Below the pieces are notes generated by a model that ran no database searches, was not told where the DNA came from, and saw only the letters and a program-made list of their open reading frames with translations. The translations under genes and the position numbers were made by a program. A stretch of 64,000 nucleotides of DNA from Cenococcum geophilum (taxonomy: Eukaryota): NCBI GenBank assembly GCA_050273025.1, contig CP158635.1:2542001-2606000 (forward strand), read 5' to 3'. Every line of letters begins with the position of its first letter. Position 1 is the first letter of the stretch. Shown here piece after piece: positions 1,468 through 27,503 of the stretch.

Positions 1468-3607
1468 TATAGCATTATATATTTTTTGGCTTAAGGGTTA
1501 GCGTTCTATATATAGCCTATATACTTAACCTTACTGAAGGCCTCTAGGATCGGAGAGACTATATACTATAGGTAAGTGCCTCCGGCACGTGACTGATGAC
1601 TATTTAAGGTGTCCCAAGGGCATTTTAAGGTAATAGCAATAATATCCCTTATATTCCCTCCCCTGTTTTTTATAGTCGGCCCCTAACTACTATTACCTTA
1701 TAGTAGAGGAAGATTATTTAAAGCTTGTCTTAGAAGGGGTTTAGAGAGCTATTAGCCTACTGCTATATATATTTTTAACTATCTAACCCCTATTTTAAAC
1801 TCCTAAAAAAAGCTTAGTAAAGAAAAACATAACTAAAGAAAATTACTACAATATATATTAGACGCCTACTAGAAATATACCGGTAACTATCTAGGTTAAC
1901 TTAAGGATTTTTATATAACTGTATATTTAAGGCTTTACGCTACTCTATAATTAATTAAATAATTTAATAGTTCTAGAATAGTTCTATAGAACCTTTAGTA
2001 CAGGATTTAGAGTATAGGGCCTTAGATTACCGCCGCTCCTAACCACTAATATTATCTATAATCTTTTTATAATCTTCTATAATACTAATATATTACTTCT
2101 ATATTTACCCTTAAGCTATTAAATATAGCTAAAGTATTAATTAGTTAGTTAAAGAGATTTATCTCCTAAGATTTAGTATATATACTTCTAAATCTAATAG
2201 TCTTATACTATATAGTTCGCGTAGCTCTACTACCTAATAAATAGAAAAAATACTTTATAATAGCACCTACAGCTATTATACGATTATTAAAACGTCTATA
2301 ACGTTATTCTTTAATACTATAATATTATTTATATATAATTTAACCCATTTACGTCTTTAACTAACACCTTAGTTACCTTCCCCTAGCGGTGTAGTAAGTT
2401 TTTATTAGGAATTTATAGCCTAATAGCTTGTCATCGTATTTTTTCCTTTTAAATCACTACTATAATAGAGTTATATTAGTAAGGTTATAGCTATATACTA
2501 AAAGGGTATTAGGAGGTAAATTATAAAGATGCCTTACTTATTAAACTTAATTCTTTTCCTTACTATTAATCTTTATCTAGCTTTATATTTTTCCTTAATA
2601 TTTTATTATACCTCTTAGGTCTTCTACTAATTACTTTTTTAAGCTAATATCTATTACGGGACACCCCCGTGACGCCTTATACACATCTACCTATTTTTAC
2701 GGACTTAGCAACCAGAGATTGACTACGAGATAGCAATCTGACGGCAATCTGCCGCATTCTGCTATATTCCGCCAAGTTCTACTAAATCCCGCCAAGTTCT
2801 GCCAGGACTACTACCTAAATCCTATTCTACTCTATATACGTTTTAACTAAGTAACTAAGCTAATAATATATACTCTTTTTTCCCGTTTTTCTACCTTATT
2901 TCCTTACGTAACGTTTTAACTTTATTACGCGGTTTGTGTGTATAGCTTAATAGTATCTACTTCGCTATATATTATCGCCGCTTATACTTATTCCGTGATA
3001 ATTTCTTAACGTATTTTAGCTCTACCCTTATAATTAAAACCTTAGCCTCTATTAACTCGTAACTAGTACTAGTTCTATTTAAATAACTTTATCTATACCT
3101 TCTTAAAAGACTAGAAGTCTAATAAAAAGATTATAAAAGCTTATAATAGGATTTACTATATATAATCTAATACCTTTGGTCCTTATAATTAGTATATATG
3201 TACTAAGAGTAGTAATTATATTAAGATAAGTTTTTCTATCCTTAGATAGTATTCTATTACTAACTTTAAGCTCTCTAATAGCCTAGGCCTAAGTAGCGGC
3301 ATATCTATTATAGAACATCCCTATAATACCTTATATATATCTACCTATTTCTATTATATAACTCCCGTTCTATACGCTATATTATATACGTAGCTAGCGT
3401 TATAGGATTCCCTTTATTGTTTATTGGTTTATTTATATCGTTTAGTAAATAGTTTATCCGCCTCTATGTCCCTATATAGATTTAGCCGCAGCTATATTCC
3501 TTTTAAGCTTTTTAATAAGCCGCTTAAGTCTCCACAACAGCTATATATAGCTATTAATTCTTTAAATCTAATATCTGTTTATCTAGCGTTCGTACATAAT
3601 ACTTTGT
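1468..3607 (-). mobile_element. 3' end of an LTR retrotransposon: 3' LTR ending ~1653, PPT, and a long 3' internal region
   Basis: LTR-like end ...atatcccttata is followed by ttccctcccctg (minus-strand polypurine tract). The left boundary is approximate. No recognisable integrase or chromodomain in the next ~1.6 kb. Confidence 0.5.
2652..3000 (+). mobile_element. Solo LTR of Gypsy family B
   Basis: Reverse complement of the LTRs at 9282-9617 and 14908-15247. Flanks ATATC / ATTTC match at 4 of 5 positions as a TSD. Confidence 0.85.
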
Positions 3608-5565
3608 TATTATAACAATTTCTACTAACTTAGTAGTAGAGGCCGATTATAAGACCATAATCTACTGCAATCTACCGCAATCTGCTGTTCTTTAATATAT
3701 TCTATTATACTCTATATATATTAACTAAGCAACTAAGTTAATAATATATACCCTTTCTTCCTACTTCCTTACTTTCTTCCCTTATATAACGTCTTAACTT
3801 TATTATATAGTTTATATATATAGCTTAATAATATCCTTTTTTTCTTCAATCCATTGTATTATACTACGTATAATACTGCGCATGCAGCCTCTAGGCTATG
3901 GCGCTATAGTTTTATATATATAAATCCTCTCTAGGTAGCTTAATATATACTAATAGCTATATCTTAATAGTTTATAAACCCTTAGGGTTTATAGCTCTCT
4001 AGTGAAGTACTAAATTGCTATAACTATTAGGTAGTAAAAGGAAATAGTAAAAAAGACTTAATAAAAGAAGAAGAACCTAAGCGCCTATCCCTATCCTATT
4101 TTGGTTTAATTCTGTCCTTTTACTTACTAATATCTATTTACTAAAAGCCTAGTAGGAGTTACCTCATTCTAAAGATCCTACTGCTATTAGCCACTTTCTA
4201 GTAGCTATTCCTATACTCTATAAAAATAAAAAAAGCGCCTCTCTTCCTTTCTTTATATAAAATAACTTTTTTAAAGAGAGCGACGATCCTAGTTTCCTTT
4301 GCATCTCTTTTCTATCCTTTATATATAGGTTGCAGTCTAGTAGTAGGTGCTTAGGGGTTTGTAAAGCCTTATATTCCCTAAAGCATCTGCCTTTTTTTAT
4401 CTTTCCCTATTGTTTTAAAGAAGGATTTAAAGTAGCCTTTTCCTAGCTTTAGCTGAAAGAAAGCTAACTATAGCTTTTTAGGATATTTATTCTTAGGAGC
4501 TTTAAGAGAAAAGGAATAGCTTCCTTTATAGATCCTAGTGTAGTATTTTCCTTTATTTTTGTTCTGCTGCCAATTAGTTTTTTACTATTCTAATATTGTT
4601 TCTCTTGCTGCTCTCCCTATATAAGCTAAAGAAGTATAAGAAGATTGTATTTTTCTTCTAGAGAGGCCCTTTTTAGCTAGTTTATCTACTATTTCATTTC
4701 CGTAAAATTCCTAAATGGCTAGGAACCCAATAGAAGTTAATAGAGATATTCCTACTAACTAGATAGGAACAACTTTGTGTAATTTTAAAGACTAGTTTTT
4801 GCCCTCCTGTAAGAGAATTAAGCTATAATCTTTTAATAGCTGCTTGGCTATCTATATTAATAATATCTACTTTATTACCGCTTATACTTACTCCGCAATA
4901 CTATACTACGTTAAACTATACTCTATACCGCTCCGCCTAGTATATAAATAAAATAACCTATACGCCACGCTTACCAAACAAATAAAGAGCCTGTAAAAGG
5001 CTTTTATAGACGCCCTTACTTAATAAGAGACCTAATATTACGGGATAATCAAGTCCCTAAGAAAAGAGGTTAAAGAGATCCGTTAAAACCTACTATCTCT
5101 ATTAGTATTAACCTATAAGTACTAAGTAGAAGAAACGTGTCTAGAACTAGCTCCTTAACCCTAAATTTACTAATTTAGGCTTATATAAAAAAGCTAGCCT
5201 AATATCTTTCCAATCTTTCTGCCTATTCTAGTAAAAGAAAGAAGCTACGCTTCTTTTTTAACTGGCTTTAAAATAAGCTAAACGGTAATATTAATCGTTA
5301 CTCCACCCTTAATAGTTAGCTATAATATACTATAAGTCGCTTAAAAAGAGACGCCGTGGAAATTATATACCTGTTTTAACCAAACACTATAAAAGAGCTA
5401 GTCGCTATACTAGAAGTATCCTATAGTAACCCTAACTAAATTACTACGGTATAAAGGAAACTAAATAAGATAATATAAGGCTCTAAGAACCTCCTATTAC
5501 ATCTTACTAAGTTATACCACTACGCTAAAGAGACTAGATAGAATAATACACCTTAATTAATCGTC
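3608..5565 (+). mobile_element. 5' LTR and gag fragment of a Gypsy B-related element, split by a LINE and truncated by a DNA transposon
   Basis: LTR homology at ~3660-3835 resumes at 4868-4900 (...ctccgcaata). It is followed by leader and gag sequence matching the reverse complement of 14170-14907. Confidence 0.75.
3836..4856 (-). mobile_element. 5'-truncated Tad1-like LINE (RNase H end, Zn-knuckle, 3' UTR, A-rich tail)
   Basis: Minus strand reads DSQAAIKR...FYWVPSHLGI.GNEI.DKLAK and FFQLKLGKGYFKSF...C..LQTPKHLLLDC...GIATRKWL*. A T-rich tail lies at 3837-3846 and an 11-bp TSD TTAATAATATC at 3825-3835 / 4857-4867. Confidence 0.88.
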
Positions 5566-7920: not shown

Positions 7921-8043
7921 AATAAAGCCTTATAGAAAATACTACGGTAGATTTATTAATAGGCTAGGTATATAGGTAATATAATAAAGCCTTATAGTAG
8001 AAACTACGGTAGACTTATTAATGGGCTAGGTGTATAGGTAAAT
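7921..8043. repeat. Tandem duplication, 2 x ~62 bp
   Basis: aataaagccttatag...actacggtaga.ttattaat.ggctagg..tataggtaa occurs twice in tandem. Confidence 0.8.
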
Positions 8044-8574
8044 AGGAAGTTAATAATATAATAATAACTAATAGAGTAGTTACCTAATAGATTAACTCTA
8101 ATTATATTTTAAGATTTATTATAAAGAAGAGAACTATCTAGGTAGGGACTATAGTCCTTTAAATACACAATACTGCGCCTAAGAAATGTACTAAGTACGT
8201 TAGTACATTACGTTCCTATATTCCTACGTTTCTATATTCTAAACTTATTACGTAACTAACTACGTAACTTAGCTACCCCTTATCCTATAGTTTAACTAGT
8301 TCTAGCACCTCTTGTACTTTTACCACTAGTCCATTTATATCTCTCCTTAATAGTACCACTACTGCTAATATAAGGTCCGTAACACTATCCCCCTCCTTTT
8401 TATTTTTGTCCTTAAAAATATCTCTTATCTCTAAGTTATTTATTAAAGGTATAGCATTCCTATCTTTAATTTAATAACCTTTATTATTCCTAATGCCTTT
8501 TATTAGATCTTCTATATCTAATTATTGTAATTAGCTAATAACGTTAATTTTTTCACTTAGTAAAGTTATACTAT

Positions 8575-9186
8575 TCTATTTTTAGTACGCGGAAAAGAAG
8601 TTAGTATATGTTATAATTACGGCTCTATCTAGTTACTAACCTTCCTCCTATACTAAGTGTATATAAGCGAATATATAATTGTCTTATAATATTTAATCCG
8701 TTTCTAACGCTAAATATATACGTTTTACGATTTTATATAATTGTCTTATTCCTTATTTAATTTATCTTAGGGTCTTACGTATTAGTAGCAGCTAAAAGAC
8801 TAAAGAGTAAGCTAGCTAAGGCTCTTACTAAGGTTTAATATTACTCTAATAAAGCGTCTTAGGCCCTAAAAGCTTAACTAGATACTTATACTTAGTTATT
8901 TCGTTTAGTAAAAGCTTATAAGAAGGTGCGCTCTAAATAGTTACGTCTTATTAAGTAAGGTCTCTTTAAGCTTAAGGCTAAGGAGGCTAAAAAGGATTCT
9001 AATTAAGTTAAGGCGGAAACAGCTAATACGCTAGTGGTAGATCCCTTAAATAATCTGGTTTATTTATCGCCTTTAACTAATTCCTTTATCTTTAGCTCCT
9101 TCTTAATATTACCTAACTCATTCTCCTTTAATACTCCTATACCTTTTCTATAGCGTTTTTTAGGTTTTATAGTAGCTCCTAGGTAG
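8575..9186 (+). pseudogene. RIPped antisense accessory gene of Gypsy A: Cys cluster, coiled coil, acidic/Ser-Phe tail
   Basis: De-RIPped reading: ...VRGKEVSMC.NC.../SSCAEC..ANM.LSCDV.SVSDAEW, then an intron at 8716-8770 ending TAG, then SRVLAAAERLESELAEALAEVQ...ARLFRL.KA.KKVRSEQLRLIEQGLFELEAEEA...FSFDTP. There is one apparent frameshift or deletion in the Cys region. Confidence 0.6.
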
Positions 9187-9281
9187 TCTTATTATAGCCT
9201 ATTTACTTTATTTATACTCTATTTTATAATTAATGTCCTTATAATTAATAATCTTTAAAACTTACTATTTATCTTCCTTTT

Positions 9282-12200
9282 TATTACAGAGTAAGTATAA
9301 GCGACGATAATATATAGCAAGGTAGATATTATTAAGCTATATAAACTGTATAAGGAGATTAAGACGTTATGTAAGGAAAGAAGGTAGGAAAACGGGAAGA
9401 AAGGGTATATATTATTAACTTAGTTGTTTAGTTAATACGTATACGGAGTAGGATAGGATTTAGGATATAGTTCTAGTAGAACTTAGCAGAATTTAGTAAA
9501 AATTAGCAAAATATAGCAGATTCCCGTCAGATTACTATAAGTCGCGGCAAATTACGGTCTTGTAGATAGTAGAAGTAGGTAGGCGTGTATAAGGTATTAC
9601 GGAGATGTCCTATAACAGTACTCCCTCTTTAAACTCAAGCTTCTGTAAAATGGGGCTGTAGTAGTTCTAGGTGGAGTTTATAAAAGTCTTCTATAGCTTA
9701 TATAAGTTCTATAGAGTTAACGGGTTCCTATAAGGGCTTAGTAAAGCCTCTTTATTTTATAAGATATATATATTAGCGTTTCCGTTTATTATACTTAATA
9801 TTATTAATTCTTTGAATAAAGTACTCGTTTTTACTATTTACTTTAACTAGTAGGGGAGGGTCTTATATTTATCTAGGCAGGGCGTTTAATATAAGGGTAG
9901 TAGGGTGGAGAATTAACGTATAGAATACGGGGTGGATTTTAACCGTATTAGGGAGCTTTAGTTAGTAGGCGTAAGAGGAAATAACCTTATTAATCTTATA
10001 AGGGCTAGCGTTCTTCTAATTAAGTTTCTTAGTAGGTTATTTTATATTTAGGTTTCTTATATTTAGCTAAATAAAGTTACTAATTTAGTAGGCTGGTGCT
10101 AGGGTTTGTTTCTTATTCGCTGTGGCTTTATAGATAGATTGGGCCCATATTATTTTATTAGTAAGAAACTGTTATAGTTCCTCTATCTTCTTTATAAATT
10201 TATTTACTTTTATAACTTATAAGGCGTAATATATAGGGCAAGGAACATTCCTAAAAGGTTTAAAACCTATTTATAGGTGCTAGCTATAATTGGCTAGGAA
10301 TAGGGAGACCTTTATAGTTTCTGAGACGGAATTATTTATAGTAAACTTAGTAAATATATGCCAGTTAATTTAGTTATTTTATAAATATAACGTGTATATC
10401 TGGATATACTATTCTATTATAGCGTTTATACGTTCCGTTTAACTGTCTACTTCTAGGTAATATATAGTAAATAGTAGTGCTTTAATACGGAGTTAGGTAG
10501 TTAGTTTTTTCTAAAATATAGAGATAAACTAGCTGCCTCTATTAGAGATAATCGTTTTAGGGAGTCTATAGAGTTATTATATATAATCTAGGAATAGTTA
10601 GGCAATAGTAGGCGTTAATATATTAGGGCAGGCGATTAAGTGCCTTATCTTAGATAGTTAGTCTATAACTACTATAATATTTATATAGCCTTTACTTACG
10701 GGGAGGTCAACAATAAAGTTAATTAAGATATCCTTCTATCTTTAGTTTAGAACAGGTAGTGGCTTTAGGAGGCCGTTATACGTCTTATATAAAGCTTTAG
10801 CTCATTAGTAGATATAGTAGCTAGAGACGTATCTTCGTATTATATTATATATATTCGGCTAATAGTATCTTTATTAAAGCAGTTCTAGGGTTTTTCCTTA
10901 GCCTAGGTGGCTAGCTATTAGTAGATTATATATATATTTAAGGAGCTTAAGCTTAAGTTTGTTATGGTTAGGTATAATTAGGCGGTTTTAGTAATATAAG
11001 CAGTTTCTACAAGCTTTGCATTTACTTAAAGAAATCTTTTTAGAGCGTTTAATGCCATCTTATATTAGCTTAAGCGTCTCTTAAATAAACTTGTTATTTA
11101 GGTATTTGTTAACTATAATCTATTTAATTAATTAATTAGTTATTTTAAGGACATGTATTATAAAATCTTTAATAGGAGGGTTAAATAGTTTAGGGCGAAG
11201 TAGGGTCTAATTTTAGTAAGAGCGCGCTTCTTTTAGGGCTAGCGCGTCTTATAAGTATTAGGTTAGGGCGTTAGGCTTTTAACCTTAAATGCCCAGGCGG
11301 TATATAATTAAGAATTAGAAATAAGATAGATATTCTAACTAGCGGGCCTAATAATAACTTAGCTATTTTATAGTTGTAAAGTACTATAGGTTCTTATAGT
11401 CGCTAAGGACCTTAATTAAAAATTTGGCGCCTTTTAGTTTGGGTTGCCATTATTTAAAATATCTAATAATAGCTAATAATTCCTTATTATAGATCTTGTA
11501 GTTATATTTAGCTAGGCTTAGTTATTTTAAGAAGTATACTATAGGGTATAATACTCTATCCTCATTATATTGAGATAGGATGCCTTTAGTAACGTAGTTA
11601 GATAAGTTGGCTTTTATAACACTTATTTAGTTTAGGTTAAAGTGTTAAAGTATAAGCGTAGTAGTAAATATAACCTTTAGATAGGCAAAGGCCTTCTTAT
11701 ATTCCTTATTAAAGATAAAGACTTTATCCTTTTAGGTTAGAGCTATAAGAGGTAAAACTAGGGCGGAGAAGTTATTAATAAACTATTAGTAGAAATTAGC
11801 AAATTTTATAAATGCTCTTACGTCCTTAACGTTCTTAGGTTCTTACTAGTTTATAGTTACTTTAACTTTCTTTAGGTCTATTTATATACTATTTATAAAA
11901 ATAAAGAGTTTAAGGTATAGGACTTCCGTTTTATAAAACTTGTATTTATTTATATCTAATTATAGACTAGCTCCGTATAAGGTTTATAAAATAAGATTAA
12001 CATATTTCTAATATTGGGTTAGGTTATTACTATATATTAGGATGTTATTAATATAAGTAGTATAAAAGATGTCTAAGTAGAAACGTAGGGTATTATTTAT
12101 ATAATTTTAAAACAAGCTTAGAGCGTTTATAAGGCCAAAGTGTGTTACTAAGTACTTAAATAGTCTATATTGGGTATGAAATGCAGTAAGCCATTTATCT

Positions 12201-15200
12201 CCTTTTGTAATGCGGAGACGGTTAAATACAAAAATGATATTAAGCTTTGTATAATAATAAGCCTTACTTAGTCAGTTTAGTGTCTTTTATATTAATGGGA
12301 TTGGATATTAGTTCTTAACGGTAACAGTATTAAGAGCTTAGTAGTCTATATAGAAGCATAAACCGCTACTAGGTTCCTTAATAAAGATTACTAGTACGGC
12401 TATAGGCGATAAGCTTACTCTAATAAATCCTTTACTTAGGTTCTTGTCTAAATACTTTTATAGCACTTAAAGTTTATTTTAGATTATTTTAGATTATTTT
12501 ATATAAAGGTCTAAATCTAGACTGCTTTCCTTCTTTAAGTATAATCTTATAGTTGTATAGTTAGTATTCTAGTAGCTTATCGGCTTCCTTTTATAATAAT
12601 GCATTTAGGCAATAATAATACTCTACTAGTACCTTTATGGTAGGGTTAGTATGCTTCTTTAGTGCTAAGGCCTTCTTAATATTAGCTATTATAACAGCGA
12701 AGATCGTATACTCGGGTTTTTTAGCAAGTTGCGCTAGTGGGGTAGCTCTAATTATATAGATATCTAGGGTGCTAAGCTTGCTTAGATTATCTATAGTTTC
12801 TTATTTAGGCTTAGGTTTAGTATTAAGTACGGAGTTAGTATTAGATTTAGGTTTAGGTTCTTTAAGAATTCTTTTTATAGTAGAATACTAGTCCTTTTAG
12901 TATTTTTATATATAGAGCTTAAGCTTCTACTTAGCTTAGGGCGGTATAGTGCTTAGTAATAACTTATAGAATTTAGTAGAGTTTTCGGATCCTTAGTAGG
13001 TGTTAGTAAAATTCTTATACTAGTAGAATCTAGTAGATTCCTTAGGCGTAGAGTGGACATTAATAGAAATCTTATATTAGTAGAATTTAGTAGAATTCCT
13101 AGGTTAGTGGAATTTAGTGGATTCCTTAGGTACGGGGTAGATAGTTATTATAATCTTAGACTAGTAGATTCTAGTAGATTTTTTAGATTTTAGTTTTAGG
13201 TCTAAGTAGCAAGTTATAAGGCACTTCTGCTTATAATAGAAGGTGGTAAATAGAAGCTTAAGGTTATCCTAATTAATAGTTACCTTATATAGCTTTATCT
13301 AGGGTTATTTAAGGATTACTGGGTAACCTAGGGTAGTAATAAAAAGTTTAATTAATTCTTCGTGGTTTAGGTATTAGAGTCTTAGGAATACTACGTAAGT
13401 AATATATCCTAAAATAGTGTGTTTGCTATTAAATCTAAATACGTTAATATACTAGTTAATAGGGGTTAGGGTAAAACTATTATCTTATATAAAGATCTTG
13501 TTAATAAATCCTATACCGCTAGCTCTTATGTTAATTAGGATTTAAGTATTAGCCTATTAACTATTCTACCAAAGACGGCAGTTAATAGTTATGCTATATT
13601 CCTAAGAGTTAGAGTTTATAACATTAAATGTGTTTAATAAGATCCTATAGTAGAACTGTTTTAGAAAGCGACTTAGCTCTAGGACTTTCCTTTTAGAGGT
13701 AATTAGGGTAGGGTTCTTATAGAATATTAGTTGTAGCTTCGTCCTTATAAATAGTACTTACTAAATATAGGGCTAAAACTAGGTAAAAATTAGGGATAGT
13801 AACTAGAAGATTAATGCGGTAAACGGCTGCTAGTATTAGCCGTTTATAAATTATGTTTAGGTATAGCGACGGAGCAGTAGTTAGAGGTAAGAGCTACTTC
13901 TATATTTAAAGCAGAGGCCTAGCTTAATACGTCGTTCTTATTTAAAGGACCCTAGTAAGGCGTACCCTAGGGTTCTAGTGTTAATATCCATAGCGTTAAG
14001 GTGCTTAGGCTAAGATAATAACTTAATAGATATTTATAGGGTTGTTATATTATATTAAGGAGCGGGCTTCGGTATTAGGCGTAGTATATTATTATACCGT
14101 TTATTAATAACGTTTATATAGGTATTAAGGGCTCCTAGTGGGTCTATGCCTATTAGGGAGGTTTTTAGTTTAGGACTTAGGGATTTAATAAGGCTATTAA
14201 TTAGTGCGGAATCGTTTTAGCCTATTTCCTTTATATAATGGTTAAATTTAAAGAAGTATATTAGAAAACTTTTTATTCCTTAAGTTATATAGTTTATCTT
14301 TCTTTAAGCAGTAGCTTAGTGGTTTAGGTTACTATATATAGCTTTAAGAAGTACAACTAGGCTTTATACTAAGTTTAGCTAAAGAGGTTTAATAAGGTTA
14401 GCTATATCTCCTTTTAGTCAACTTAGGGCGTAATAGAGTTGGTTAGCTTTAGTTAGGTAATAGTTAGTATTACTAGTTAGCTTATTTTTAAGCTAGCTTA
14501 GAAATAATTAGAGCTTTTATTATTTATTAATAAATACTAAAGAATCTAGTAGTTATTTAGATTGTTTTAGTATAGTAGTTAGCTTAGGGTAAGTAACTAC
14601 TATAGGTTCGGGGCTTATGTTCCATAGATTTATCTCCAAAAATAGTATTTAGTCTTAAGGTCCTAGCGTAGGCATCTTAAGGGCGCGGACTTCTTCTTTG
14701 AGGTCCTTAATTAATTGCTAGTATTATACTTCTTATTTAGCTTATTATTAATTTAAAGTAGCTTAGTTTTATTTAAGGGCGTTTATAAAAGACTTCTATA
14801 TCCTTACTAATTATTTTTAAAGTATGGATATAATACCGGCGGCTGTTATAAGGGCTTTAGGTTTATTCTATATATTAACAATAGTATAGGTAGTTAACGT
14901 AATATAGTATTACAGAGTAAGTATAAGCGACGATAATATATAGTAAGGTAGATATTATTAAACTATATATATAAACTGTATATAGAGGTTAAGACATTAT
15001 ATAAGGAAAGAAGGTAGAAAAAGGGGAAGAAAGGGTATATATTGTTAACTTAGTTACTTAATTAATATATATACGGAGCAGAATAGGATTTAAGATATAG
15101 TCTTAGTAGAACTTAGCAGGATTTAATAAAACTTAGCAGAATATAGCAGATTGCCGTTAGATTACTATAGGTCGCGGCAAATTGCGGTCTCGTAAATAGT

Positions 15201-15247
15201 GAAAGCAGGTAGGCGTGTATAAGGTATTACAGGGGTATCCCATGACA
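9282..15247 (-). mobile_element. Full-length Gypsy/chromovirus family B (gag, protease, RT, RNase H, integrase, chromodomain), RIPped
   Basis: LTRs at 9282-9617 and 14908-15247, TSD CTTTT (9277-9281 / 15248-15252), PPT complement at 9618-9630. The RT YIDD-type motif lies near 12040-12055 on the minus strand. Confidence 0.95.
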
Positions 15248-16408
15248 CTTTTATCCTCTATATATATCTACTTTATAAACTAGTAGCTCTACGTCTCTAT
15301 ATACTAGCTTTAGTATTATAATATATTATATAGGGTAAATCTTTATTTTTATTAGTAAGTTAAGTTTATATATAACTTTTAAAATCTTAGCTATAATTTT
15401 AAATAGTCCTAGTTTAACGTAATCTAACTTCTTACTTAGTTGTTAACTTATAAAAGTTTTATATAATAGCTATACTTTATCTCCCTCCTTTAGATCTAGT
15501 CCCTTAAATCTCTTAGCATTATAGTACTTTTTAATTTTATTTTATACTATTTTTATTATAAAACAGAGGTCCTTATATAAAATTTTATTAGAGTCTTAAT
15601 TTTTTCCTTTACTATACTACTTATTTTCTTTACTTATTATAGTAATAACGATATTTTAGGCTTATATCTATAATTTACCTAAAATAGTAATATCTTTATA
15701 TCTTTCTATAGTATCGCATTATATATAAACTATATAACTAGTAATAATAATACCTAATTATTCTATGCGTAATTAATATAATATCTTAGATACTGCTCTA
15801 ATATCTAATTTAATCTTTTTATTTACCCGTCTATCTGCGAATAATATATAATAAAAGTTACTACTTTAACTCCTTATTCCGCTAAAAATACCTCCTAGAA
15901 TACTATTATAAATCTTAAATCTCTATTTAATATAATTTTTCTTAGTACTCTATATCTTATAAACACTTCTTTAATATAAACTCTAGCGATATCCTCTACT
16001 AAGATTTCTTCTATACATGCTATAAAGTAGCCCTATTTAGTTAACTTGTCTACTATTATAAGAATTATATTATACTCTTATCCGGTAATAGGATCTCTTA
16101 ACCTTAGTAGTTTTATAATAAAGTTCTATAATATAACTTCCTATAGTCTTTGTAGTATCTTAATAGGCTATAGCTTTCTATACAGCTTATACCTTATTAG
16201 TTTATTCCTTTAGTAATTTAGATATTCCCTTATAGCTTCTCTTACTAAACCCTAGATTCTATTAATAATATACTCCTCTTAGAGTCTTAACACTAGCCCT
16301 TAGGCTCCGTTATATCCCTACGTTATTCCCTTATAGAATTCTTTAATAAACTCTTTTATAATTAACTTAGGTATATACATTACTTCTTAGTTCTTATACT
16401 ACTCTATA

Positions 16409-16720
16409 TATTACGGGGCGGGGGCAGTGGCTATAGAGCGTATGTATTTAAGGAGTCTATAAGACGTTACGCGATTAATTATAAGGATTAAGAGCGTAAG
16501 GAGGTGATATACCTACGCGTAGCTGACGTAAGCTATACGCGAGGTGTATGCAAGAGCACGGGGCTCTCCTATAGAGGCCCCTACGGTGGGGTTCCGTAAC
16601 ACTACCCCCCCTTCTATAAAGGTGGAGCTCCGGCGATACTATGGTTACTATATATATATAGAAGGGACACTTAAGGTATATAGAGAAGAAAAAAGGGGTA
16701 TCGCTAAAGGCTTGTAATAA
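16409..16720 (-). mobile_element. 3' LTR (16409-16601), PPT and short internal remnant of a further Gypsy family
   Basis: TATTACGG...CCGTAACA termini followed by ctacccccccttc. Confidence 0.7.
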
Positions 16721-18721
16721 TGTTACGTAATAAGACTTAGCACCTAAAAATCTAACTAATTAGATAATTTTAACCGCTGGTTAAAGTTCCTAGATATCTT
16801 GACAAGTTTCTAGTTACGTAATCGCACTTTACCGTTATATAATGGCAATCTGCGGCAATTTAATGGTAATTTAATAGCAATTTGCCCTTATATAGTAATG
16901 TATAACGGCTTAACTCTATAAGGGCTCCTATAGAGGATTAAGTATAAAATCTCTGCTTAGGCCTAGTTTCTATAGTTTCGCGTAATAAAAATCGCTAATT
17001 AGATACTTTATATCTTTAAAGTCTTTCTATAGTTACTATTCTGGCTAATTTATATTAAATCCTGTATAGATAGCTCTATAGTAGAGCCACCGTCCTCTGC
17101 CTTTACTAAAGTATTTAGAATTAATAATTTGTTTAATGGTCTACTCCTTATAGTTCTTATCTTTATTCTTGTCTTAGATTAGTACTAATAGGGTATAGCG
17201 GTTATAGATAATAGTGTAGTTAAGGTAGGTCGTCTAGGTAGATTTACTTATTAGGATTATATACGCGTATAAATATCCTAGTTAGTTATAGGCGGTAATA
17301 GCGTTATAAAATAATTTTTAAATAAATATATAATAAATATATAATAAATATTGATGAGTTTAGCGATTTTAAAAGCGAATTAGCCACGTAGTAACTGCGT
17401 TTAATATTCGCGAATATTGCAGAAGGTCTTAGCATTGTGCGTTACTAAGATGGATACTATAAGCAATATATAGACGCTAGTATATAATTATAGTTGCCAA
17501 ATACGCAGGTTGCTAGCAGGTTGTACGTAGGTTACGCGTAGGCTATACGCAGGCCGCGTGTTAAAAAAACACGATATAGGCTAGTCGGTTAAGTTGCTAA
17601 ATGCCCTTAACTACGCGCTAATTGCGTTAACCACTAACCATTGAGGCCATTAGTAGGGTACTATATTTTGCCAATATATAGATTTTTATAGTCGCTAAGG
17701 ACCTTAATTAGAAATCCGGCGCCTTCTAGTTTGGGTTACTATTATTTAAAATATCTAATAATAGCTAGTAATTCTTTATCGTAAATCTTATAGTTATATT
17801 TAGCTAGGTTTAATTGTTTTAAAAAGTATACTATAGGGTATAATACTTCTTCTTTATTATATTAAGATAGAATACCTCTAGTAACGTAATTAGATAAGTC
17901 AGCTTTTATAACACTTATTTATTTTAGGTTAAAGTGTTAAAGTATAGGTATAGTAGTAAATATAACCTTTAGATAAGTAAAGGCCTTCTTATATTCCTTA
18001 TCGAAGATAAAGACTTTATCCTTTTAGGTTAGAGCTATAAGGGGTAAAACTAGAGCGAAGAAGTTATTAATAAACCGTTAGTAGAAATTGGCAAATCCTA
18101 TAAAGGCTCTTATATCCTTAACGTTCTTAAGTTCTTACTAGTTTATAATTACTTCGACTTTCTTTAGGTCTATTTATATACTATTTATAGAAATAAGAAG
18201 CCTAAGGTATAGGTCTTCTATTTTATAGAATTTGTATTTATCTATATCTAATTATAGACTAGCTCCTTATAGGGCTTATAGGATAAGATTAATGTATTTC
18301 TAGTATTTCGTTAGGTTATTACTATATATTAGAATATTGTTAATATAAGCAGTGTAGAAGATATATAGGTAGGGGCGTAGGGTATTATTTACGTAATATT
18401 AAAACGAGCTTAAGGCGTTTATAAGGCCGAATAATATTACTAAGTACTTAAATAATTTATACTAGGTACGGAACGTAGTAAGCTATTTATCTCCTTTAAT
18501 AATATAGAGCGGTTAAATATAGAGATAATATTAAGCTTCGTATAATAGCAAGCCCTACTTAGTTAGTTTAGTATTTTCTATATTAATAGGATCGGATATT
18601 AGTTCTTAATAGTAACGGCGTTAAGAGCTTAGTAGTTTATATAGAAGCGTAAACCGCCGCTAGGTTTCTTACTAGTATAGCTATAGGTAAAGAGCTTTGC
18701 TCTAATAAATCCTTTACTTAG

Positions 18722-21700
18722 TATTAGGCTATAGAGACGCACTAGCCGTAACCGGCTTAGCGTAGGCGAGGCGCAGGCGAGGCGCCTATAAAACGTAGTC
18801 GCCCCGCATTAGAGAACAGCAGAATTTAGTTCTATAGTTCTACTTCATTAAGAACTAGATACTCTTTGCATCCCGCTACTGTTATTATATTACTACATAC
18901 CCTAAGGACCTTAGCGTCCTAACAGTACTGAATTCTTATCCCTTTTTAGGGGTGGTGGCCCGACAACACAGCGGTCTACTAAGGCCACAACTACGTAGCG
19001 GCAACCCTCTGTCGAGAAGACGACCTATATTTATTAACTATATCACAGCCTATCGACCTAATGGCGAGACGAGGGTGTACTAGCGTAGTGCGTACTATTA
19101 AGCCTGGAGATCGGCCCTAGGATAATATAGGCGAACCTATATCGTCCCGGACAGAACCAGAAGCTACGGATAAAGGGGATATATAGGAAAAAATATAACG
19201 GCTAGAAAACGAAAAGCTATAACTCCTAGAGTAAAGTAAACTATACTTACTTAGGAAAGAGGTGGAAGTGCTAAGACGGCGTTAACGCGGTAAGGTGACG
19301 TTGACTCCCATTCCTGACCTAGATCTATAACCTTAAACTATCCTATTGGAGTACTTAGATGGTAGCTAGATGCGTCCGAACCTTAAGCGGAAGGCTACTA
19401 ATATAATAGGCGCTTTATTAAAACGGGCCGTTAAAATAGAGAAGATTGCTTTATATTATGGTAAGACCATATAAGAGTACTAAGACTTCTATAATAGCTT
19501 AAAGCTAGCGTTCTACCTAGAGTATAACGGCTTCGCGGATAAGGATACTAAAGTTGCGTTTACTATATAATATATAAAGGGGACCAACCGAACCCTTTGG
19601 CTGTAGTATAAAGATAACCACCTAGACACGCAGTTTACCTAGGAGGAGCTAATAGAATTCCTAATTAACCAAATTAAAAGTCCTATTAATTGAGAACTCT
19701 ATATAGCCCTAATATATGTAAGGGCAATGTAACGAACCAATTAACCTATAAACGAGTTTACTGCTTACCTAACCTCCTTAGAAGTATAAATTAATCCTCC
19801 CTATAATATAAAGCATCTAATAATATACCTGTTCGCGAAGCTATGGCTAGAGCTACGGCTATTAGGAGTTTCTATAAACTTAAAATTAGCTAGTTTCTTT
19901 AGCTGCCCTATTAAGGAAAAACCAAAAGAGCGTAAGTGCCCTATAGGCTAGAAGTAATAGGCGCGCCGTGAACTTAAATATAAAGACTACCCCATCGGGT
20001 AACTTAGGGAAAGTAGACTCTAAAACCACCGCTAGCGATATAACGGCGGGGTAAAGTAGTACCGCTAGGGGTTTAACCCAACCTAAGGAGAACTACAAAA
20101 ATTATGGCAAGCTAGGATATTAGTGGCGACAGTGCCTAAAAACACGATAGTACCAGCCGTAGTTAAGTAGCGTAAACGCTATCTTAACGCTAGGAAAAGG
20201 CAGGCGCCCTTGGAGCCCCTTATACTTATAGGGCGTAAGCTACTACTAGATTATAAGGAAGCTATTACTATTTTAGGAGAAGTCCTATCTAAGCAAACCT
20301 AAAAGGAGACCTTAGTAATGCTTAATCTCGGCGCCGAAGTAAATGTAATTAATTAGCAATTCATAATAGAGTATAACTTTAAAACACTAGACGTAGAATT
20401 GCCTACTTACTTTTAGTTAAATAAAACTTAGGTATATTACTATAAAGCCTATAAGGTACTATTAAGAATAAAGGACAGCTAGGGCAGGATAAGGGAAGTA
20501 ACCCTTATCTGCTATAGAATGGCTAACACATCCCCCACTATTACCCTAGGTATGCTAGGGTTAAAGAAGGCCCGACTTTTTATTAACTATAAGGCGAAGG
20601 CGTGGCGACAGAAGCTAGATGGCTCGTCCCTGTTACTATAAACCCCTAAGGGTTTTGCGGAGTCTCTCTAGAGGGAATCTAGGGTCTTCTCCCTAGTAAT
20701 TACTAAATTAATACCTAGTAAATAAGACGACGGCAGCTTACTGGTTCTTCCCCTATAGTTAAAAGAAGCTAGCGATATCTTCTTATATAAGGAAGCAGGA
20801 AAGCTACCCTAATACTACTAGGGCGACTATGCTATTAACCTAGAAGAGGGATAGGAGGTCCTATATAGACCGCTCTATAACCTTTCGGTTAAGGAGCTAG
20901 AGGTACTAAAGGAGTACTTAGATAATGCCTTAGCTAAAGGTTAGATCTAACTAAGTACTAGTCCCGTAGGGGTACCTATCCTATTTATACCTAAAAAGAA
21001 TAGGAAGCTATGGCTCTGTATAGATTATAGAGGCCTTAATAAGGTAATAATTAAGAATCGTCTCGCACTACTATTAATTAGTAAGACCTTGGACCGCTTA
21101 GTAGGTTCTAAGATTTTTACTAAGTTAGACTTAACGAATGCGTACTACCGCCTTTGTATCTATTGGGGCGACAAGTAAAAGACGGCGTTCCGCATACGTT
21201 ATAGCCACTTTAAGTATTTAGTTTTGCCTTTTAGGCTAACTAATAGACTAGCGACCTTTTAGGGCTATATTAATCGGGCCTTATTAGGACTGGTAGACGT
21301 CTTCTATATAGTCTACCTTAATAATATTCTAATTTTCTCTAAAAATCTAGAGGAACACTAGCGCCACGTACTAGAAGTGCTATATAGGTTATAGTAATAT
21401 TAACTATATATAAACCTTAAGAAGTGTAGGTTTAGTGTATAAGAGGTTAAGTTCCTAGGATATATTATTAGTCCTAAAGGCGTAGCGATAGATCCTAGCC
21501 GGGTAAAAGCTATTACTAAGTAGGAGAGCCCTTAATCCTATAGGGATATCTAGGTCTTTCTAGGTTTTGCTAACTTCTATTACCGGTTTATCTATAAGTA
21601 CTCTGCTATTGCGAAGCCTATTACTAATCTCCTTAAGGGAGTAAAGAACGGCTGTAAAGCTAGGCCTCTTAGTTAGCCTAAAGAGGCGAAGCAGGCAATG

Positions 21701-24700
21701 CGCTGGCTCTGCGACGCCTTTACAACGGCGCCGCTTCTGCGACACTATACGCTGGGCTTACTGACCCGGTTAGAGACTAATACCTCTATATAAGGCCTAG
21801 TAGCAATTATATTATAGCTGTTTAAAGATAGTCTTTAGTATCTAATAGCCTTTTAGTCTAGGAAGCTTTCGCCAGCAGAGTATAATTATAAAACCTATAA
21901 TTAGGAGCTACTAGCTATTGTGGAGGCTTTTAAGCATTAGAGATACTATATTAAGGGGCTATTAAGCCGCCTAGAAGTGCTTACAGACTATAATAATCTA
22001 AAGGGTTTTATAAAGTAAAAGCCCTTAATAGACGGTAAGCTAGATAGGCTATAGCATTAGCTGCCTATAACTTTGTTATTAAGTATAGGGCGGGAAAAAC
22101 GAACCCCGTAGACGCGCTGTTAAGGCGACCCCTAGGCGTAGGGGGTCCGCTAGAAGAAGACACTATGCTACTATTACTCTAAAGGACTTTAGGAATATAG
22201 GGCCACTAACCTAAGGTAAAAGTCCCACTAGGTGTATAAGAAAACGAGCCTTTTATAAAGGTGTTGTTTCTATAGCTATAAGCCAGTAACCTGACGGCGG
22301 TACGCCTAGGCTATATAGTATTATAGTTTAACTAGGCAACCTATACGTATACTGTTAAGCAGCGTGCAATAAGGACCTAAGTTAGAGAAGCTAGTACTTA
22401 AGAGAGTGCTTATAAGTCTAGTATGGAAACAGTTGTTAAGCTTATTAAAGGACTTTAGACTAAAGATGACTTTATGCTACAAAAGCGCAGCGACAGCGTA
22501 GATATTGCGAGACGCCGTTAACGCGCTTGCTTAAAGCTAGTATAGCAGTTTAATTCCGCTAGACTACTTTATTACCGCGGGAGGCTATATATGCCCCTAG
22601 ACCCAGCGGTTTGTGTAGAACTCCTATAGATCCACCACAATAATGCCCTAGCTGGGCACTTTGGTAAGAAAAAGACTCTAAATCTACTTTTACGTAAATA
22701 CTACTAGCCTAGTATAAATGCGGACGTTATAAACTACATCCCTACCTATAATTTATGCCAACGTATACATGCGCCTTAATATCGCCCTTATGGTAAGCTT
22801 TAAGCGCTACCTTACCCAGACCAGCCGTGGTAGGAGATTATAATAGACTTTATTATAGGCCTACCGCCTAGTAAATGAGGCGATAAGGTATATAACGCAA
22901 TATATATAATAGTCGACCGCTATACTAAGATGGCCTTATATCTGCCTATAGTAAAAACTATTACTATAACCGAACTCGCGGATCTCTTTTTTAATAAAGT
23001 AGTACGCCGTTTTAGAGCCCCTAGGGGGATTATATCTAATTACGGTAGTATCTTCACTAGTAAGTTTTAGTCGGAGCTATACTTTACTGCGAAGATTAAA
23101 TATAGGCTAAGTACGGCCTTTTACCCACAAACTAATGGGTAAATAAAACGCCAGAACTAAACCTTAGAGTATTACCTCCGTATATTTTATAACGAAAAGT
23201 AGAGCAACTAGGTAGGCCTCTTATTATTAGCCGAATTTACCTATAATAATGCTAAATATAGCAAGATGGGTATAAGCCTGTTCTATACCTGCTACGGGTT
23301 TTACCTATATCTAGAATACAAAGTTAAGGCAGATAATAGTAGTTCTATTTTAGCCGCCTTTAAAAGGATTAAAAGGATATCCCTTAAACATAAAGCGCCA
23401 GTAAAACGCTAGGAACACGCTGCCGAGGCATAGGCAAAATACTATAATCGTTATTACTAACTATAGGCATATAAAGTAGGGGATCTAGTCTTGCTATTAA
23501 CTAAGAACCTTAAACTAAAAAGGCTAAGTAAGAAACTTACAGCATGCTTTATTAGACCTTTTAGTATAGCTGAACTAGTTAGAAAGTAAGCATACTGACT
23601 ATATCTACCCACGTCTTACTATATCTACCCAGTGTTTTATATTAGCTTACTAGAGCTATATAAATAACGTAAGGGCACTACTAGAGACCCTCTACTAGGG
23701 CCTATTAAGCTAGACGATTAAGCGGACTAAGAGGACTAATATAAGGTAGAAGAAGTATGTAGAAGGAAGGGATATAACTAGACCCTACAGTACCTGGTTA
23801 AGTAGAAAGGCTAGCTAAAAGAATATAATAAATAGGTCCTAGTAGAGGACATTAATAAGAACGCAAAGAAGACGTATAATAGTTACTTTACCCTAAGGGG
23901 TAAACGGAAAAGAAAGTAGGTAGGAGAATAAAAAACTTTTAATTATAACTAAGGTTATGCTCTACTAGTGGGGCGACAACGGAATAACGGCGGAGTGATG
24001 GTAATATGCTAATAGAAATATAGATACTTTACAGCTCTAGTAAATCCTCCCTTTCCTTCCCTCCTTCCTTATCCTCCTTCTCCTCTCCCTCCTTATCCTC
24101 CTTCTCTCCCTCCTCCTTATCCTCCTTACCCTTATTCTCCTTCTTATCCCTTATAATGGGAGGCATATTAGCCTACAGGTACTATTAGCATACGCTATAA
24201 CGGCGAAACACCTACGCTATAACATGTACTAAAGCGCGTATTACGTTAAGAATTCCTTTAAGAGTATAATAGATGGCCTATAATTCCTGCACTTAGAGCA
24301 GGGGAAAGTCTTCGCCCTTTAGGCGCTGGCGGAGACCGTGCTTAGCGCCGGTGCGTACTAAGGCCTTAATATCCTTTATAAAGGACTTCTAGGCGGCAGC
24401 GACGCGAGTATTAAGGTCAGCCGTGTCCCCGCTAGTAACCCGCCGGCGCTTAGCCCTATCAATAAGGGCGAGTAGCTTATTTAGGCGGCTATAGAAGGCC
24501 TTAGGGACCTAGTCTGTTAGCTATTAGAACCTAAACCAATACACTTAGACGTACTGGTTGGCACGACTTATTTAGTTATTAGTAGGACCTATAATTACGG
24601 TTAGCCTACTTACCGCAGGTGACCCACCTAGTAGTAGCTACACGCTTAGTGTAACGGAGGTAGATTAGTTCTAGCAAAGCTAGGGGAGCGGCTTATAAGC

Positions 24701-25297
24701 GGTATAGGAGCTTTAACAGCGCCTAGTAGGGTTAGCGACAGCTATAAGCTAGTATAAAGAATACTTACGGAAGACTCGCGAGCAGGCAAACTAACGGCTT
24801 AGCGCTTGCGATTTATAATTAATTAGAAGTTGTAAAGAAGGCAAGTCGTAGGCTAAACAAATTAAAATGGAATTAGAAGGGAAATCTAATGTCCTATCTA
24901 GGTAGGAACTCCTACCTTTATAGATCTCTACAAGGTCCTATTATTATATTATCCTATTATTATATTACCCTATTATTACATTATTTGATTTACTTAAATT
25001 TATCAAAAACTTTTTATTTAGAGAAGGGCAATAATAGTACTCCTATTGTATAATAGCGTCGGCTGAGGACAGCCGCTTAAGAAGGGGGGGCAATTATTAG
25101 GCCATAGAGACGCACTGGCCGTAACCGGCTTAGCGCAGGCGAGGCGCAGGCGAGGCGCCTACAAAACGTAGTCGCCCCGCATTAGAGAACAGCAGAATTC
25201 AGTTTTATAGTTCTACTTCATTAAGAACCAGATACTCTTTGCATCCCGCTACTATTATTACGTTACTATATACCCTAAGGACCTTGGCGTCCTAACA
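18722..25297 (+). mobile_element. Full-length Gypsy/chromovirus family C with an extended 3' region, RIPped
   Basis: 203-bp LTRs at 18722-18924 and 25095-25297, TSD CTTAG, PPT gaagggggggcaat at 25081-25094. Protease LD.GAEVN ~20320, RT YLDDIL ~21313, integrase, chromodomain ~23740-23880. Confidence 0.96.
24029..24816 (-). pseudogene. RIPped 4-exon antisense accessory gene of Gypsy C, ~212 aa: Zn2Cys6-like cluster, coiled coil, acidic tail
   Basis: Exons 24816-24769, 24722-24555, 24508-24230 and 24172-24029 are all multiples of 3. Three phase-0 introns of 46, 46 and 57 nt: GTAAGT..GCTAAC..TAG, GTACGT..GCTAAC..TAG, GTACAT..GCTAAT..TAG. Confidence 0.8.
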
Positions 25298-27279
25298 CTT
25301 AGGTTCTCGTCTAGATACTTTTATAGTACTTAGAGTTTATTTTAGGATATCCTGTATAGGGGTCTAAATCCAGGCTACTTTCCTTCTCTAAGTATAATTT
25401 TATAGTCGTACGGTCGGTATTCTAGTAGCTTATTAGCTTTCTTTTATAAAAATGCTTCTAAACGATTATATTATTCTACTAGTACCTTTATAGCAGGGTT
25501 AGTGTACTTCTTTAGTACTAAGGCCTTTTTAATATCGGCTATTATAACGGCAAAGATCGTATATTTAGATTTCTTAGCAAGTTATACTAGCGGAGTAGCT
25601 CTAATTATGCGGATATTTAGGGTACCGAGCTTACTTCGATTGTCCATAGTTCCTTATTTAGGTTTAGGTTTAGGTTTAGTATTAAGTATAGAGTTAATAT
25701 TAGACTTAGGTTCGAGTTCTTTAAATATTTTTTTTATTATAGAGTACTAGTTCTTCTAGTAGTTTTATATACTAAGCTTAAGCTTCTATTTAGTTTGGGG
25801 CAGTATAGTGCTTAGTATTAGCTTATAGAATATAGTAGAATTTTTAAATCCTTAATAGGTGTTGGTAGAATTCTTATATTGGTAAAATTTAGTAGAATTC
25901 CTATGCTAATGAAATCTAGTAGATTCCTTAGGCGTAGGGTAGACATTAGTAGAAATTTTAGGTTGGTAGATCTTAGTAGATTTCCTAGATTTTAGTTTAG
26001 GGTTAGGGCGGCACGTTATAGAGTATTCCTTTCTATAATAAAGGGCAGTAAATAAAAGCTTAAGGTTATTTTAATTAATAACTACCTTATATAGCTTTAT
26101 CTAGGGTTGTTTAAGGATTACTAGGTAACCTAAGGTAGTAATAAATAGCTTAATTAGTTCTTTATAGTTTAGGTATTAGAGTCTTAGGGCTACTATATAA
26201 GTAATACGACCTAAAATAGTACGTTTGCTATTAAATCCAAATACGTTAGTATACTAGTTAAGGGGGATTAGGGTAAAACTATTATCTTATATAAAGATCT
26301 TATTAATAAATCCTATATCGCTAGCTCTTATATTAATTAGGATTTAAGTATTAGCCTATTAACTATTCTACTAAAGATAGCAGTTAATAGTTATGCTATA
26401 GTCCTAAGAGTTAGAGTTTATAATATTAAATGCGTTTAACGAAATTCTATAGCAGAGCTGTCTTAAAAGGCAACTTAGCTCCAGGACTTTCCTTTTAAAG
26501 GCAATTAAGGCGGGGTTTTTATAGGACGTTAGTTAGAGCCTTATCCTTATAAACGGTGCTTACTAGTTATTAAGCTAGAGCTAAATAAAGATTAGGGACA
26601 GTAGCTAGAGGATTAAGGCGGTAGGCTACTAGCGTTAACTATTTATAGGTCTTTTTAAAAAGAGGTGAAGTAGTAGTTAAAGAGGTAGAAGTTACTTCTA
26701 TATTTAAAGCAGAGGCCTAGCTTAATGCGTCGTTTTTATTTAAAGGACCCTAGTAGGGCGTATCCTAGGGTCCTAGTGTTAATATCTATAGCGTTAGGGT
26801 GCTTAAGCTAAGATAACTTAGTAGACGTTTACAGGGCTATTATATTGTATTAAGGAGCGTATTTCGGTATTAGACGTAGTATATTATTATACTATTTATT
26901 AATAACATTTATATAGGCATTTAGGGCTCCTAGTAGGTCTACGTCTATTAGGAATATTTTTAGTTTAGGGCTTAAGGATTTAATAAATTGTTAATTAATA
27001 TAGAGTCGTTCCAACCTATTTCCCTTACATAATAGTTAAATTTAGAGAAATATATTAGGAAACTCTTTATTCCTTAAGCTATATAGTTTATTTTTCTTTA
27101 AGTAATAGCTTAACGGTTTAGGTTATTATATATAGCTTTAAGAAATATAACTAGGCTTTATACTAAGTTCGGCTAAAGAGGTTTAATAAAGTTAGCTACC
27201 TCTTCTTCTAGTTAACTTAGGGCGTAATAAAGTTAGTTAGCTTTAGTTAGGTATTGGTTAATATTACTAGTTAGCTTAT

Positions 27280-27503
27280 TATAAGCTTTGCAGTGTGTAG
27301 GAATTGAATAAACGACTTGATTGTAAATGTAGCTTTAAAGTATCTATATATATACGAACAAAGATAGGTCACAAGTACCCCTTAATCTTATCCTCAATAT
27401 AGCCGTAATTGACCTTTTAGGCTAATTAAGGCGGCTGTAGCCATTACGGTCCACAGTAGGTGATACAGTAGTGTTTTTAACGTAGTACTGGTAGTCGGTT
27501 ACA
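27280..27503. mobile_element. Solo LTR (224 bp) inserted in the gag of the second Gypsy B copy
   Basis: TATAA(TGTAA)...TTACA termini with TSD CTTAT. Absent from the homologous site (~14481) of the first copy. Confidence 0.9.

Follow-up and report, generated by a model that had tools for sequence, protein, structure and literature searches.

Remains of a probable spliced antisense accessory gene in a RIP-inactivated Gypsy retrotransposon of Cenococcum geophilum

The first 37 kb of the window (the whole stretch of 64,000 nucleotides of Cenococcum geophilum DNA that was analysed, from contig CP158635.1) consist of nested transposon debris, which is AT-rich (GC ~0.25–0.40) and of the type produced by repeat-induced point mutation (RIP). 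This debris includes a Gypsy retrotransposon on the minus strand, called Gypsy A in a first-pass annotation. That annotation had noticed about 700 bp between the chromodomain and the polypurine tract (PPT) of this element, and the interval is real; it was also right about the strand and the Gypsy nature of the element, which has nevertheless to be redrawn as an outer, 5'-truncated Gypsy that is split by a nested one (9282–15247). On the plus strand of the pol-PPT interval, antisense to pol, lies what is very probably the RIP-inactivated copy of a two-exon gene (8493–9153), whose intact relatives encode a protein of ~200 residues made of a cluster of six cysteines, a long helix and a conserved tail rich in proline and phenylalanine.

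In the window, the candidate intron reads ATATAC at 8716–8721 (the donor, ancestrally GTACGC) and TAG at 8768–8770, and its removal would join T (8715) to GG (8771–2) to give a TGG codon; these letters and the split codon are all as the first-pass annotation had them. The long plus frame that it described as overlapping the C-terminus of pol tail-to-tail runs from 8773 to the TAG at 9151, and its last ~12 codons lie over the last chromodomain helix. The end of exon 2 had been placed correctly. The gene, like the coding signal, starts upstream of the stretch that had been singled out, with an ATG at 8493 that the window has kept intact; of the 68 aligned rows of family copies described below, 17 have M at this place and 49 have ATA. 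Exon 2 is interrupted by seven internal stops, all TAA or TAG, and the cysteine codons of exon 1 have been mutated to tyrosine. With 13 stops in total, tyrosines in place of cysteines and a donor changed from GT to AT, this copy cannot function, and the openness of a single copy is weak evidence, since any TAA or TAG can be explained by RIP.

The translation of the plus frame, with X at the stops, matches 29 open reading frames (ORFs) from metagenomes (70–99 residues, 57–74% identity, E-values from 4e-27 to 5e-14), all of which are in the exon-2 frame, and 28 of which share the same stop. A full profile search retrieves 71 cluster representatives at E ≤ 1e-3, and 130 proteins are retrieved at the same threshold when a broader alignment is used in a word-indexed search. 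Several of these relatives are un-RIPped, and un-RIPped ORFs span the whole of both exons (P0106, P0215, P0218–P0221). The plus frame across 8771–9150, which had been predicted to be open, is fully so in P0106, P0052 and the group P0218–P0221. In P0215, exon 1 is complete and directly followed by exon 2, and residues 1–80 align with exon 1 of the window.

Among these relatives, the intron is present in some and absent from others. P0106 (154 residues, on a contig of 120,785 bp) aligns without gaps to 8689–9147 of the window, through the intron region, with a valine (GTN) on the window's ATA at 8716–8718 and an arginine on TAC at 8719–8721. Because of this valine and this arginine, a GT donor (GTACGC) exists in un-RIPped DNA, where the first-pass annotation had assumed it. 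In P0043, residues 3–15 correspond to 8679–8717 in the exon-1 frame and residues 16–138 to 8773–9150 in the exon-2 frame, so that exactly 8716–8770 is omitted and a tryptophan is formed from T and GG. This intron-less junction (8715/8771) occurs in seven of 236 proteins, namely P0043, P0192, P0215 and P0218–P0221; the junction sequence that had been anticipated from the window, SVSDAEW/SRV(Q), is found to the letter in P0192, P0215 and P0218–P0221. A single 90% cluster of six members comprises two unspliced proteins (P0106 and P0217) and four spliced ones (P0218–P0221, 141 residues, contigs of 984–1629 bp). A genomic form with the intron and a form without it are thus present for one and the same element. 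Since gene callers of the IMG type do not model introns, the intron-less proteins must derive from contiguous sequence.

At the level of DNA, the outer Gypsy family is highly repeated in two organisms and in one root metagenome. With an alignment of the 29 ORFs, pattern matching gave 596 candidates; confirmation left 127, of which we used the best 80 loci, and most of these span 8300–9281 at 75–86% identity. These best 80 of the 127 loci provide 60 stretches that are colinear with the window over 8300–9281, all of them RIPped (GC 25–35%), and a sister family provides eight further stretches at 65–68% identity, which makes 68 copies. A scan of the metagenome contigs with a 34-mer in which G and C were fixed and A and T degenerate gave no match. 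Just past the 3' end of the gene, 72 of 85 copies have the integrase of the family on the opposite strand and none has it on the same strand, the other 13 giving no match. The colinearity of the copies and the consistent strand of the integrase show that, in this family, both the interval and the way it is oriented are fixed. The stop of exon 2 is retained in 59 of the 60 family copies and in all eight sister copies, and both families have a branch-like CTAAT or CTGAT 10 nt before the TAG acceptor. At the six codons of exon 1 where tyrosine is in the majority (8577, 8586, 8607, 8649, 8658 and 8685), cysteine is retained in 1 to 23 of 69 rows each.

RIP makes only transitions, and we therefore scored transversions, counting by codon position the columns with a transversion polymorphism in at least two copies. 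A third-position excess is seen over the first exon, in 8478–8567 (11/30, 8/30 and 26/30 for positions 1, 2 and 3; p ~ 0, printed as 0.0) and in 8568–8714 (9/49, 5/49 and 20/49; p = 0.001), and again in the first half (23/43, 23/43 and 35/43; p = 0.008) and the second half (17/83, 23/83 and 35/83; p = 0.008) of exon 2. The proposed intron gives 7/19, 9/18 and 4/18 when counted from 8716, these not being codon positions, and the difference is not significant. Upstream of the gene, 8403–8477 has 13 such columns out of 75 (2/25, 5/25 and 6/25 by phase) and no codon periodicity; around the PPT (8386–8402), the 68 copies have none in 17 columns. The strand is indicated by fourfold-degenerate codons: in 8478–8714, read on the plus strand, transversions are found at the third position of 40 of 57 fourfold-degenerate codons versus 6 of 22 other codons (odds ratio (OR) 6.27, p = 0.0008), while the minus-strand shadow frame gives an OR of 0.71 (p = 0.49).

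The seven indels between two subfamily consensuses are all multiples of three (21, 6, 3, 15 and 3 nt in exon 2, 3 nt in exon 1 and 3 nt upstream). The 21-nt indel, in the part that encodes the coiled coil, equals one heptad and is a recurrent length difference. The first half of exon 2 (8775–8900) is hypervariable among at least nine subfamilies, between conserved flanks, and stays helical and heptad-like; at least nine subfamilies keep the frame under coding constraint. The mean number of exon-2 stops per copy is 6.8 in the proposed frame, 8.8 in the shadow frame and 12.9–17.9 in the others (n = 68), in loci chosen with plus-frame exon-2 proteins, a choice which may have biased this count and has no effect on the exon-1 tests. 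The openness of a de-RIPped consensus was discarded as a test. If C or G is written wherever two or three copies keep it, the GC content rises to 57–63% and three frames are nearly open: the proposed frame opens, but so do the minus-strand shadow and, in part, a third frame. The true chromodomain frame still has six stops after this treatment, because its TGG and CAA/CAG sites are saturated.

The protein, as seen in P0215, starts with a region rich in serine and arginine, which is followed by the six cysteines and by the long helix. The cysteines are spaced C-x2-C-x6-C-x13-C-x2-C-x8-C, with AKEGLV, hence one lysine, between the second and the third. The cysteine cluster of the first-pass annotation is therefore confirmed as regards its six cysteines, by P0215 and by the minority alleles of the RIPped copies, and not as regards the spacing it had given. 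The AlphaFold2 model (from an alignment of 30 rows) has a mean predicted local distance difference test (pLDDT) of 79; residues 58–151 form one helix, whose means over blocks of 10 residues are 96–99 from residue 81 on. Modelled as a homodimer, residues 72–152 score 0.54, versus 0.00 for the best of three controls; at least 93% of the contacts are common to the runs, and the pLDDT of the partner is at least 87. In a benchmark, a score this high was obtained for 21 of 30 proteins solved as pairs of one chain and for none of 23 solved as single chains; among eukaryotic proteins, 17 of 29 attained it, but only one of the seven that have no older solved relative did. The C-terminal third is conserved (..DPxxxP..L..PF.F..SFS.LP[DN]..S.[DN]TP..); only its last ~12 codons overlap pol. 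The SFDTP that had been read near the end is SxNTP in the RIPped family (N in 60 of 61) and SSDTP in the un-RIPped relatives.

We argue that 8493–9153 (+) is very probably a dead, RIPped copy of a spliced antisense accessory gene which belongs to one lineage of fungal Gypsy (chromodomain) elements. The following observations weigh against this interpretation or against parts of it. By our own arithmetic, 127 codons at 29% GC should contain ~10 stops, to be compared with the seven seen in exon 2. The fourfold test applied to exon 2 does not distinguish the strands (OR 1.89 for plus and 1.87 for the minus shadow), and the exon-2 transversions between two subfamily consensuses (13, 25 and 29 by position) do not distinguish them either. 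The G of the donor at 8716 is kept in one of the 60 family copies and one of the eight sister copies, which is within noise: among the A-majority columns outside a RIP context, 20 have one G, eight have two and 38 have none. The minority G was rejected as evidence for this reason, and the case for the donor depends on the un-RIPped relatives. The family counts at least 130 protein clusters, but the 130 related proteins all come from environmental sequencing (JGI, ENA or SRC metagenome data), with the exception of one NCBI record; a widespread, optional module of fungal chromoviruses, put forward in the first-pass annotation, is a proposal that these data cover in part. The antisense protein has no significant match in Pfam or in the PDB. 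P0215 matches the Pfam family Zn_clus (PF00172) with E = 0.075 and 13.6 bits, below the cut-off of 21, its residues 32–51 falling on profile positions 18–36 of 39, which sets its first cysteine triad on the second half of the model; the match to PPR1 has E = 0.56, and a profile search of the PDB returned only chance coiled-coil matches (E ≥ 0.3). Its Atlas neighbours are only Ascomycota clusters (0.90/0.89), with no Zn_clus among them. In the structural models, the pLDDT of the cysteine region is only 51–59, and the dimer is antiparallel (contacts 136–90 and 115–115, for example), unlike Gal4-type zippers. Last, the intron-less proteins are most simply explained as cDNA of a spliced antisense mRNA, but this origin is inferred from sequence.

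Could the region contain no gene, and the frame have simply been read into RIPped, AT-rich DNA, where any TAA or TAG can be "repaired" to Gln or Trp? The number of stops in exon 2 would agree with this idea, as would the several frames that are opened by aggressive de-RIPping, the uninformative polymorphism of the donor, and the absence of any Pfam family on all six RIPped frames of 8386–9281. Yet un-RIPped ORFs cover both exons, and the codon periodicity, the enrichment at fourfold sites and the in-frame indels are those of a coding sequence, which makes this explanation extremely improbable. It is also highly improbable that the coding strand is the minus strand, which would make the shadow frame a third, short ORF behind pol and turn the ORF on the plus strand into its mirror image. 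The shadow frame is indeed the second most open one, the exon-2 fourfold test is without discrimination, and the transversions between consensuses in exon 2 follow the order expected on the minus strand (position 2 < position 1 < position 3). Against this, the preference given by the fourfold test in exon 1 is for the plus strand only, the splice signals and the exact removal of 55 nt make sense only on that strand, the six-cysteine motif and the helix predicted with high confidence are features of the plus frame, and pol, whose stop is at 9115, is not linked in frame to the shadow frame.

It may also be that the gene is real but that its intron-less forms are DNA, either processed copies or lineages that have lost or never had the intron, and that the ORF is a captured host fragment which does nothing for the element. 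RNA data would fit with this possibility: in the RNA run X21 (~12% of which was read, at 80% likeness), 108 reads were found, all partial, and none over 8523–9090, although it should be kept in mind that the window copy is dead and ~20% diverged from the intact ones. We consider it unlikely, since within one 90% cluster the unspliced form is on a contig of 120,785 bp whereas the spliced forms are on short, mRNA-like contigs, and since a precise difference of 55 nt bounded by GT and AG is the footprint of splicing. The coding constraint in at least nine subfamilies, and the constant place and orientation with the integrase opposite in 72 of 85 copies, also argue against it. A spliced antisense gene of the element itself is the reading that we retain.

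If this reading is correct, the genomic RNA of the element would be the other strand, so that the intron would survive retrotransposition and be removed only from the antisense mRNA, which would start in or near the 3' long terminal repeat (LTR). The conserved non-coding stretch 8403–8492 could be the 5' untranslated region (UTR) or the promoter of the antisense gene, or else a 3' UTR or cis element of the retrotransposon RNA. The protein might modulate transcription, either that of the element or that of host genes, in a way comparable to the antisense proteins of retroviruses. Our best guess, which we hold to be possible rather than probable, is that it regulates the expression of the element itself, as a dimer that binds zinc and nucleic acids.

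In this respect, the obvious comparison is with the fungal Zn2Cys6 binuclear-cluster regulators such as Gal4 and PPR1. The pattern of these proteins is C-x2-C-x6-C-x(5-12)-C-x2-C-x(6-8)-C, and basic residues between the second and third cysteines contact DNA. The antisense protein is similar in that six cysteines with x2, x6, x2 and x8 spacings precede a dimerising helix, and the hosts of the gene are Ascomycota-like. Unlike these regulators, it has a middle loop of 13 residues, one more than the pattern allows, a single lysine between Cys2 and Cys3, and a dimer that is modelled as antiparallel. Membership in the Zn(II)2Cys6 family is not established: the Pfam gathering score is missed, and the stretch between Cys2 and Cys3 has a single basic residue.

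Another comparison is with HBZ of human T-cell leukaemia virus type 1 (HTLV-1) and other antisense proteins of retroviruses. The HBZ gene is spliced, antisense and located at the 3' end of a reverse-transcribing element, and its small product dimerises through a coiled-coil helix and has a part that putatively binds DNA. On paper, the gene described here is alike: antisense, spliced, at the 3' end, and coding for a small coiled-coil protein. On the other hand, its product is not a bZIP protein (no bZIP was found among the Pfam families for six proteins at E ≤ 10), a cysteine cluster takes the place of the basic region, and an LTR promoter is only presumed. One may speculate that an ascomycete Gypsy lineage carries a spliced antisense gene of its own that resembles a transcription factor, coding for a dimeric zinc-cluster DNA-binding protein, related to Zn2Cys6 proteins or convergent with them, which would bind LTRs or host promoters to control expression and would be a fungal counterpart of HBZ; we find this rather doubtful. 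Were it true, an arms race, or else a specificity for partners that differs among subfamilies, might lie behind the fast-evolving first half of the coiled coil and its heptad indels.

Passages of two articles (PMC8365987, PMC7264820) show that the occurrence of antisense ORFs in the interval from pol to the 3' LTR is well established and that their function is unexplained. In fungi, the example given there is brtn, an additional antisense gene of Boty/BcGypsy1 in Botrytis cinerea and in Sclerotinia (Zhao et al. 2011, Virology 417:248, as cited in PMC8365987 and PMC7264820). The gene described here resembles brtn in being an extra gene, antisense to gag-pol, that a fungal Gypsy element carries between pol and its 3' LTR; it comes from different, soil- or root-associated elements, and it has a 55-nt intron, a six-cysteine cluster and a coiled coil, features that are set beside brtn by description only. 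No relative named BRTN was found among the database matches. The listings and abstracts of the literature mention no case of a spliced antisense gene in a fungal Gypsy beyond brtn.

In plants, such genes are called aORF-3R (antisense ORF), with gene23 of maize Grande, rice RIRE2, Silene Retand and Phaseolus PvRetro13 as examples in the relevant passages of a review (PMC7264820), which also mentions antisense promoters in the 3' LTR and calls for a search for antisense spliced transcripts. The present gene lies between pol and the PPT, on the strand opposite to gag-pol, and is conserved in most copies of the family, as expected of an aORF-3R. Like the plant genes, as they are described in these passages, it resembles no known protein and is suspected of acting in regulation or in the nucleus. 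It differs from them by the kingdom and the element lineages, by the lack of any sequence relation, and in that an exon junction is documented.

A second antisense ORF is present in the window itself, in another Gypsy family. The Gypsy C ORF (24032–24541), carried by the minus-strand element 18722–25297, has the same position and orientation and also has little-mutated homologues in metagenomes (four clusters, P0030–P0033, of 99–105 residues, with 67–70% identity and E-values from 7e-36 to 3e-32). The two genes had been thought to follow the same logic, but this is an analogy only. Their profiles show no detectable homology when aligned with hhalign (probability 0.06%), and the homologues of the Gypsy C ORF all end at ...SVC, so that the Glu/Lys-rich, acidic tail that was part of the argument lies past their stop. 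The 203-bp LTRs of the element 18722–25297 show 94% identity, and its GC content of ~0.36–0.42 indicates that this element is much less RIPped. It interrupts a 3'-truncated second copy of the nested family (17677–28276) that is 80–85% identical to 11385–15236.

The first-pass reconstruction, made from one wrecked copy, was right in its essentials, the exon junction included. The kind of gene is already known from antisense ORFs such as brtn, while the protein family, its architecture and the documented intron appear to be new. Antisense genes of LTR retrotransposons are functionally unexplained everywhere, and essentially one fungal case, brtn, is cited; a second protein family, set beside it by description, offers testable biochemistry through its Cys6 cluster, its dimerising helix and its conserved tail. 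The intron-less coding sequences also give evidence for an antisense spliceosomal intron that is kept in genomic copies. Such genes can be recovered even from fully RIPped genomes, by combining many dead copies, statistics that are blind to transitions, and un-RIPped relatives from the environment. The presence of two unrelated antisense genes in two Gypsy families of one 64-kb window suggests that pipelines for the annotation of transposable elements routinely miss them.

The features of the locus are collected in Table 1. The limit of the outer 3' LTR is defined by 45 high-scoring segment pairs that begin at 7975–7984 in the comparison of the 80 metagenome loci with the window, and loose contig ends fall at 7979/7980, the edge of this LTR. 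The chromodomain motif of the outer element, ..VKxxGY..TWEP..NL.NA...VWEYW (~9255–9114), was read from a codon table of the 68 copies, in which its tryptophan codons are TAG or TAA in 62–65 copies and the TAG at 9115 is present in 63; Pfam detected no chromo domain on the RIPped translation of the element.

Table 1. Coordinates in the window of the antisense gene and of the surrounding parts of the two Gypsy elements.
Feature	Position	Strand	Remarks
3' LTR of the outer Gypsy	7980–8384 (approximate)	−	minus strand starts TGTTACGG at 8384
PPT of the outer element	8389–8401	−	reads AAAAAGGAGGGGG on the minus strand; read directly
Conserved non-coding stretch upstream of the antisense ATG	8403–8492	+	role inferred
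Exon 1 of the antisense gene	8493–8715	+	74 codons + 1 base; Cys cluster; 6 stops in the window
Intron	8716–8770	+	phase 1, 55 nt; branch CTAAT 8757–8761, acceptor TAG, donor GT changed to AT
Exon 2 of the antisense gene	8771–9153	+	coiled-coil half (variable, to ~8900), then a conserved core and the C-terminal tail; stop TAG 9151–9153
Chromodomain and probable pol stop of the outer element	9113–9281	−	TAG 9115–9113; codon table, 68 copies
Nested, unrelated Gypsy inserted in the outer chromodomain region	9282–15247	−	LTRs of 336 and 340 bp
Continuation of the outer pol (integrase part), element truncated upstream	15253–16600	−	tblastn and read-through

The nested Gypsy has LTRs (9282–9617 and 14908–15247) that are 87% identical in a self-comparison of the window, is flanked by a target-site duplication (CTTTT at 9277–9281 and 15248–15252), and codes on the minus strand for reverse transcriptase, RNase H, integrase and SH3_Tf2-1 domains. 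It leaves no room for an antisense gene, because its own chromodomain abuts its own PPT. The outer pol resumes at 15253, since the nested element interrupts it: when the insertion is excised, 9281 joins 15253, and the outer pol reads as integrase, SH3-like region and chromodomain. The segment 16191–15667 has 33% identity (tblastn) with the integrase of the nested element. The self-comparison found no second copy of the chromodomain-PPT interval in the window.

Solo or fragmentary LTRs of the nested family lie in the opposite orientation at 2651–3001 and 3696–3835 (74–83% identical). Some of the partial reads of run X21 lie over the LTR regions 7955–8167 and 9233–9445; they are mostly less than 90% alike, and their loose ends enter unrelated, GC-richer sequence, so that they may be transcripts of other, diverged LTR copies. 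Between 37000 and 58000, the GC content changes suddenly to 0.44–0.66; this part presumably flanks the transposon nest, bears genes and has escaped RIP. Further on, 59325–60322 is a tandem array with a period of ~257 bp, the copies of which are ~84% identical.

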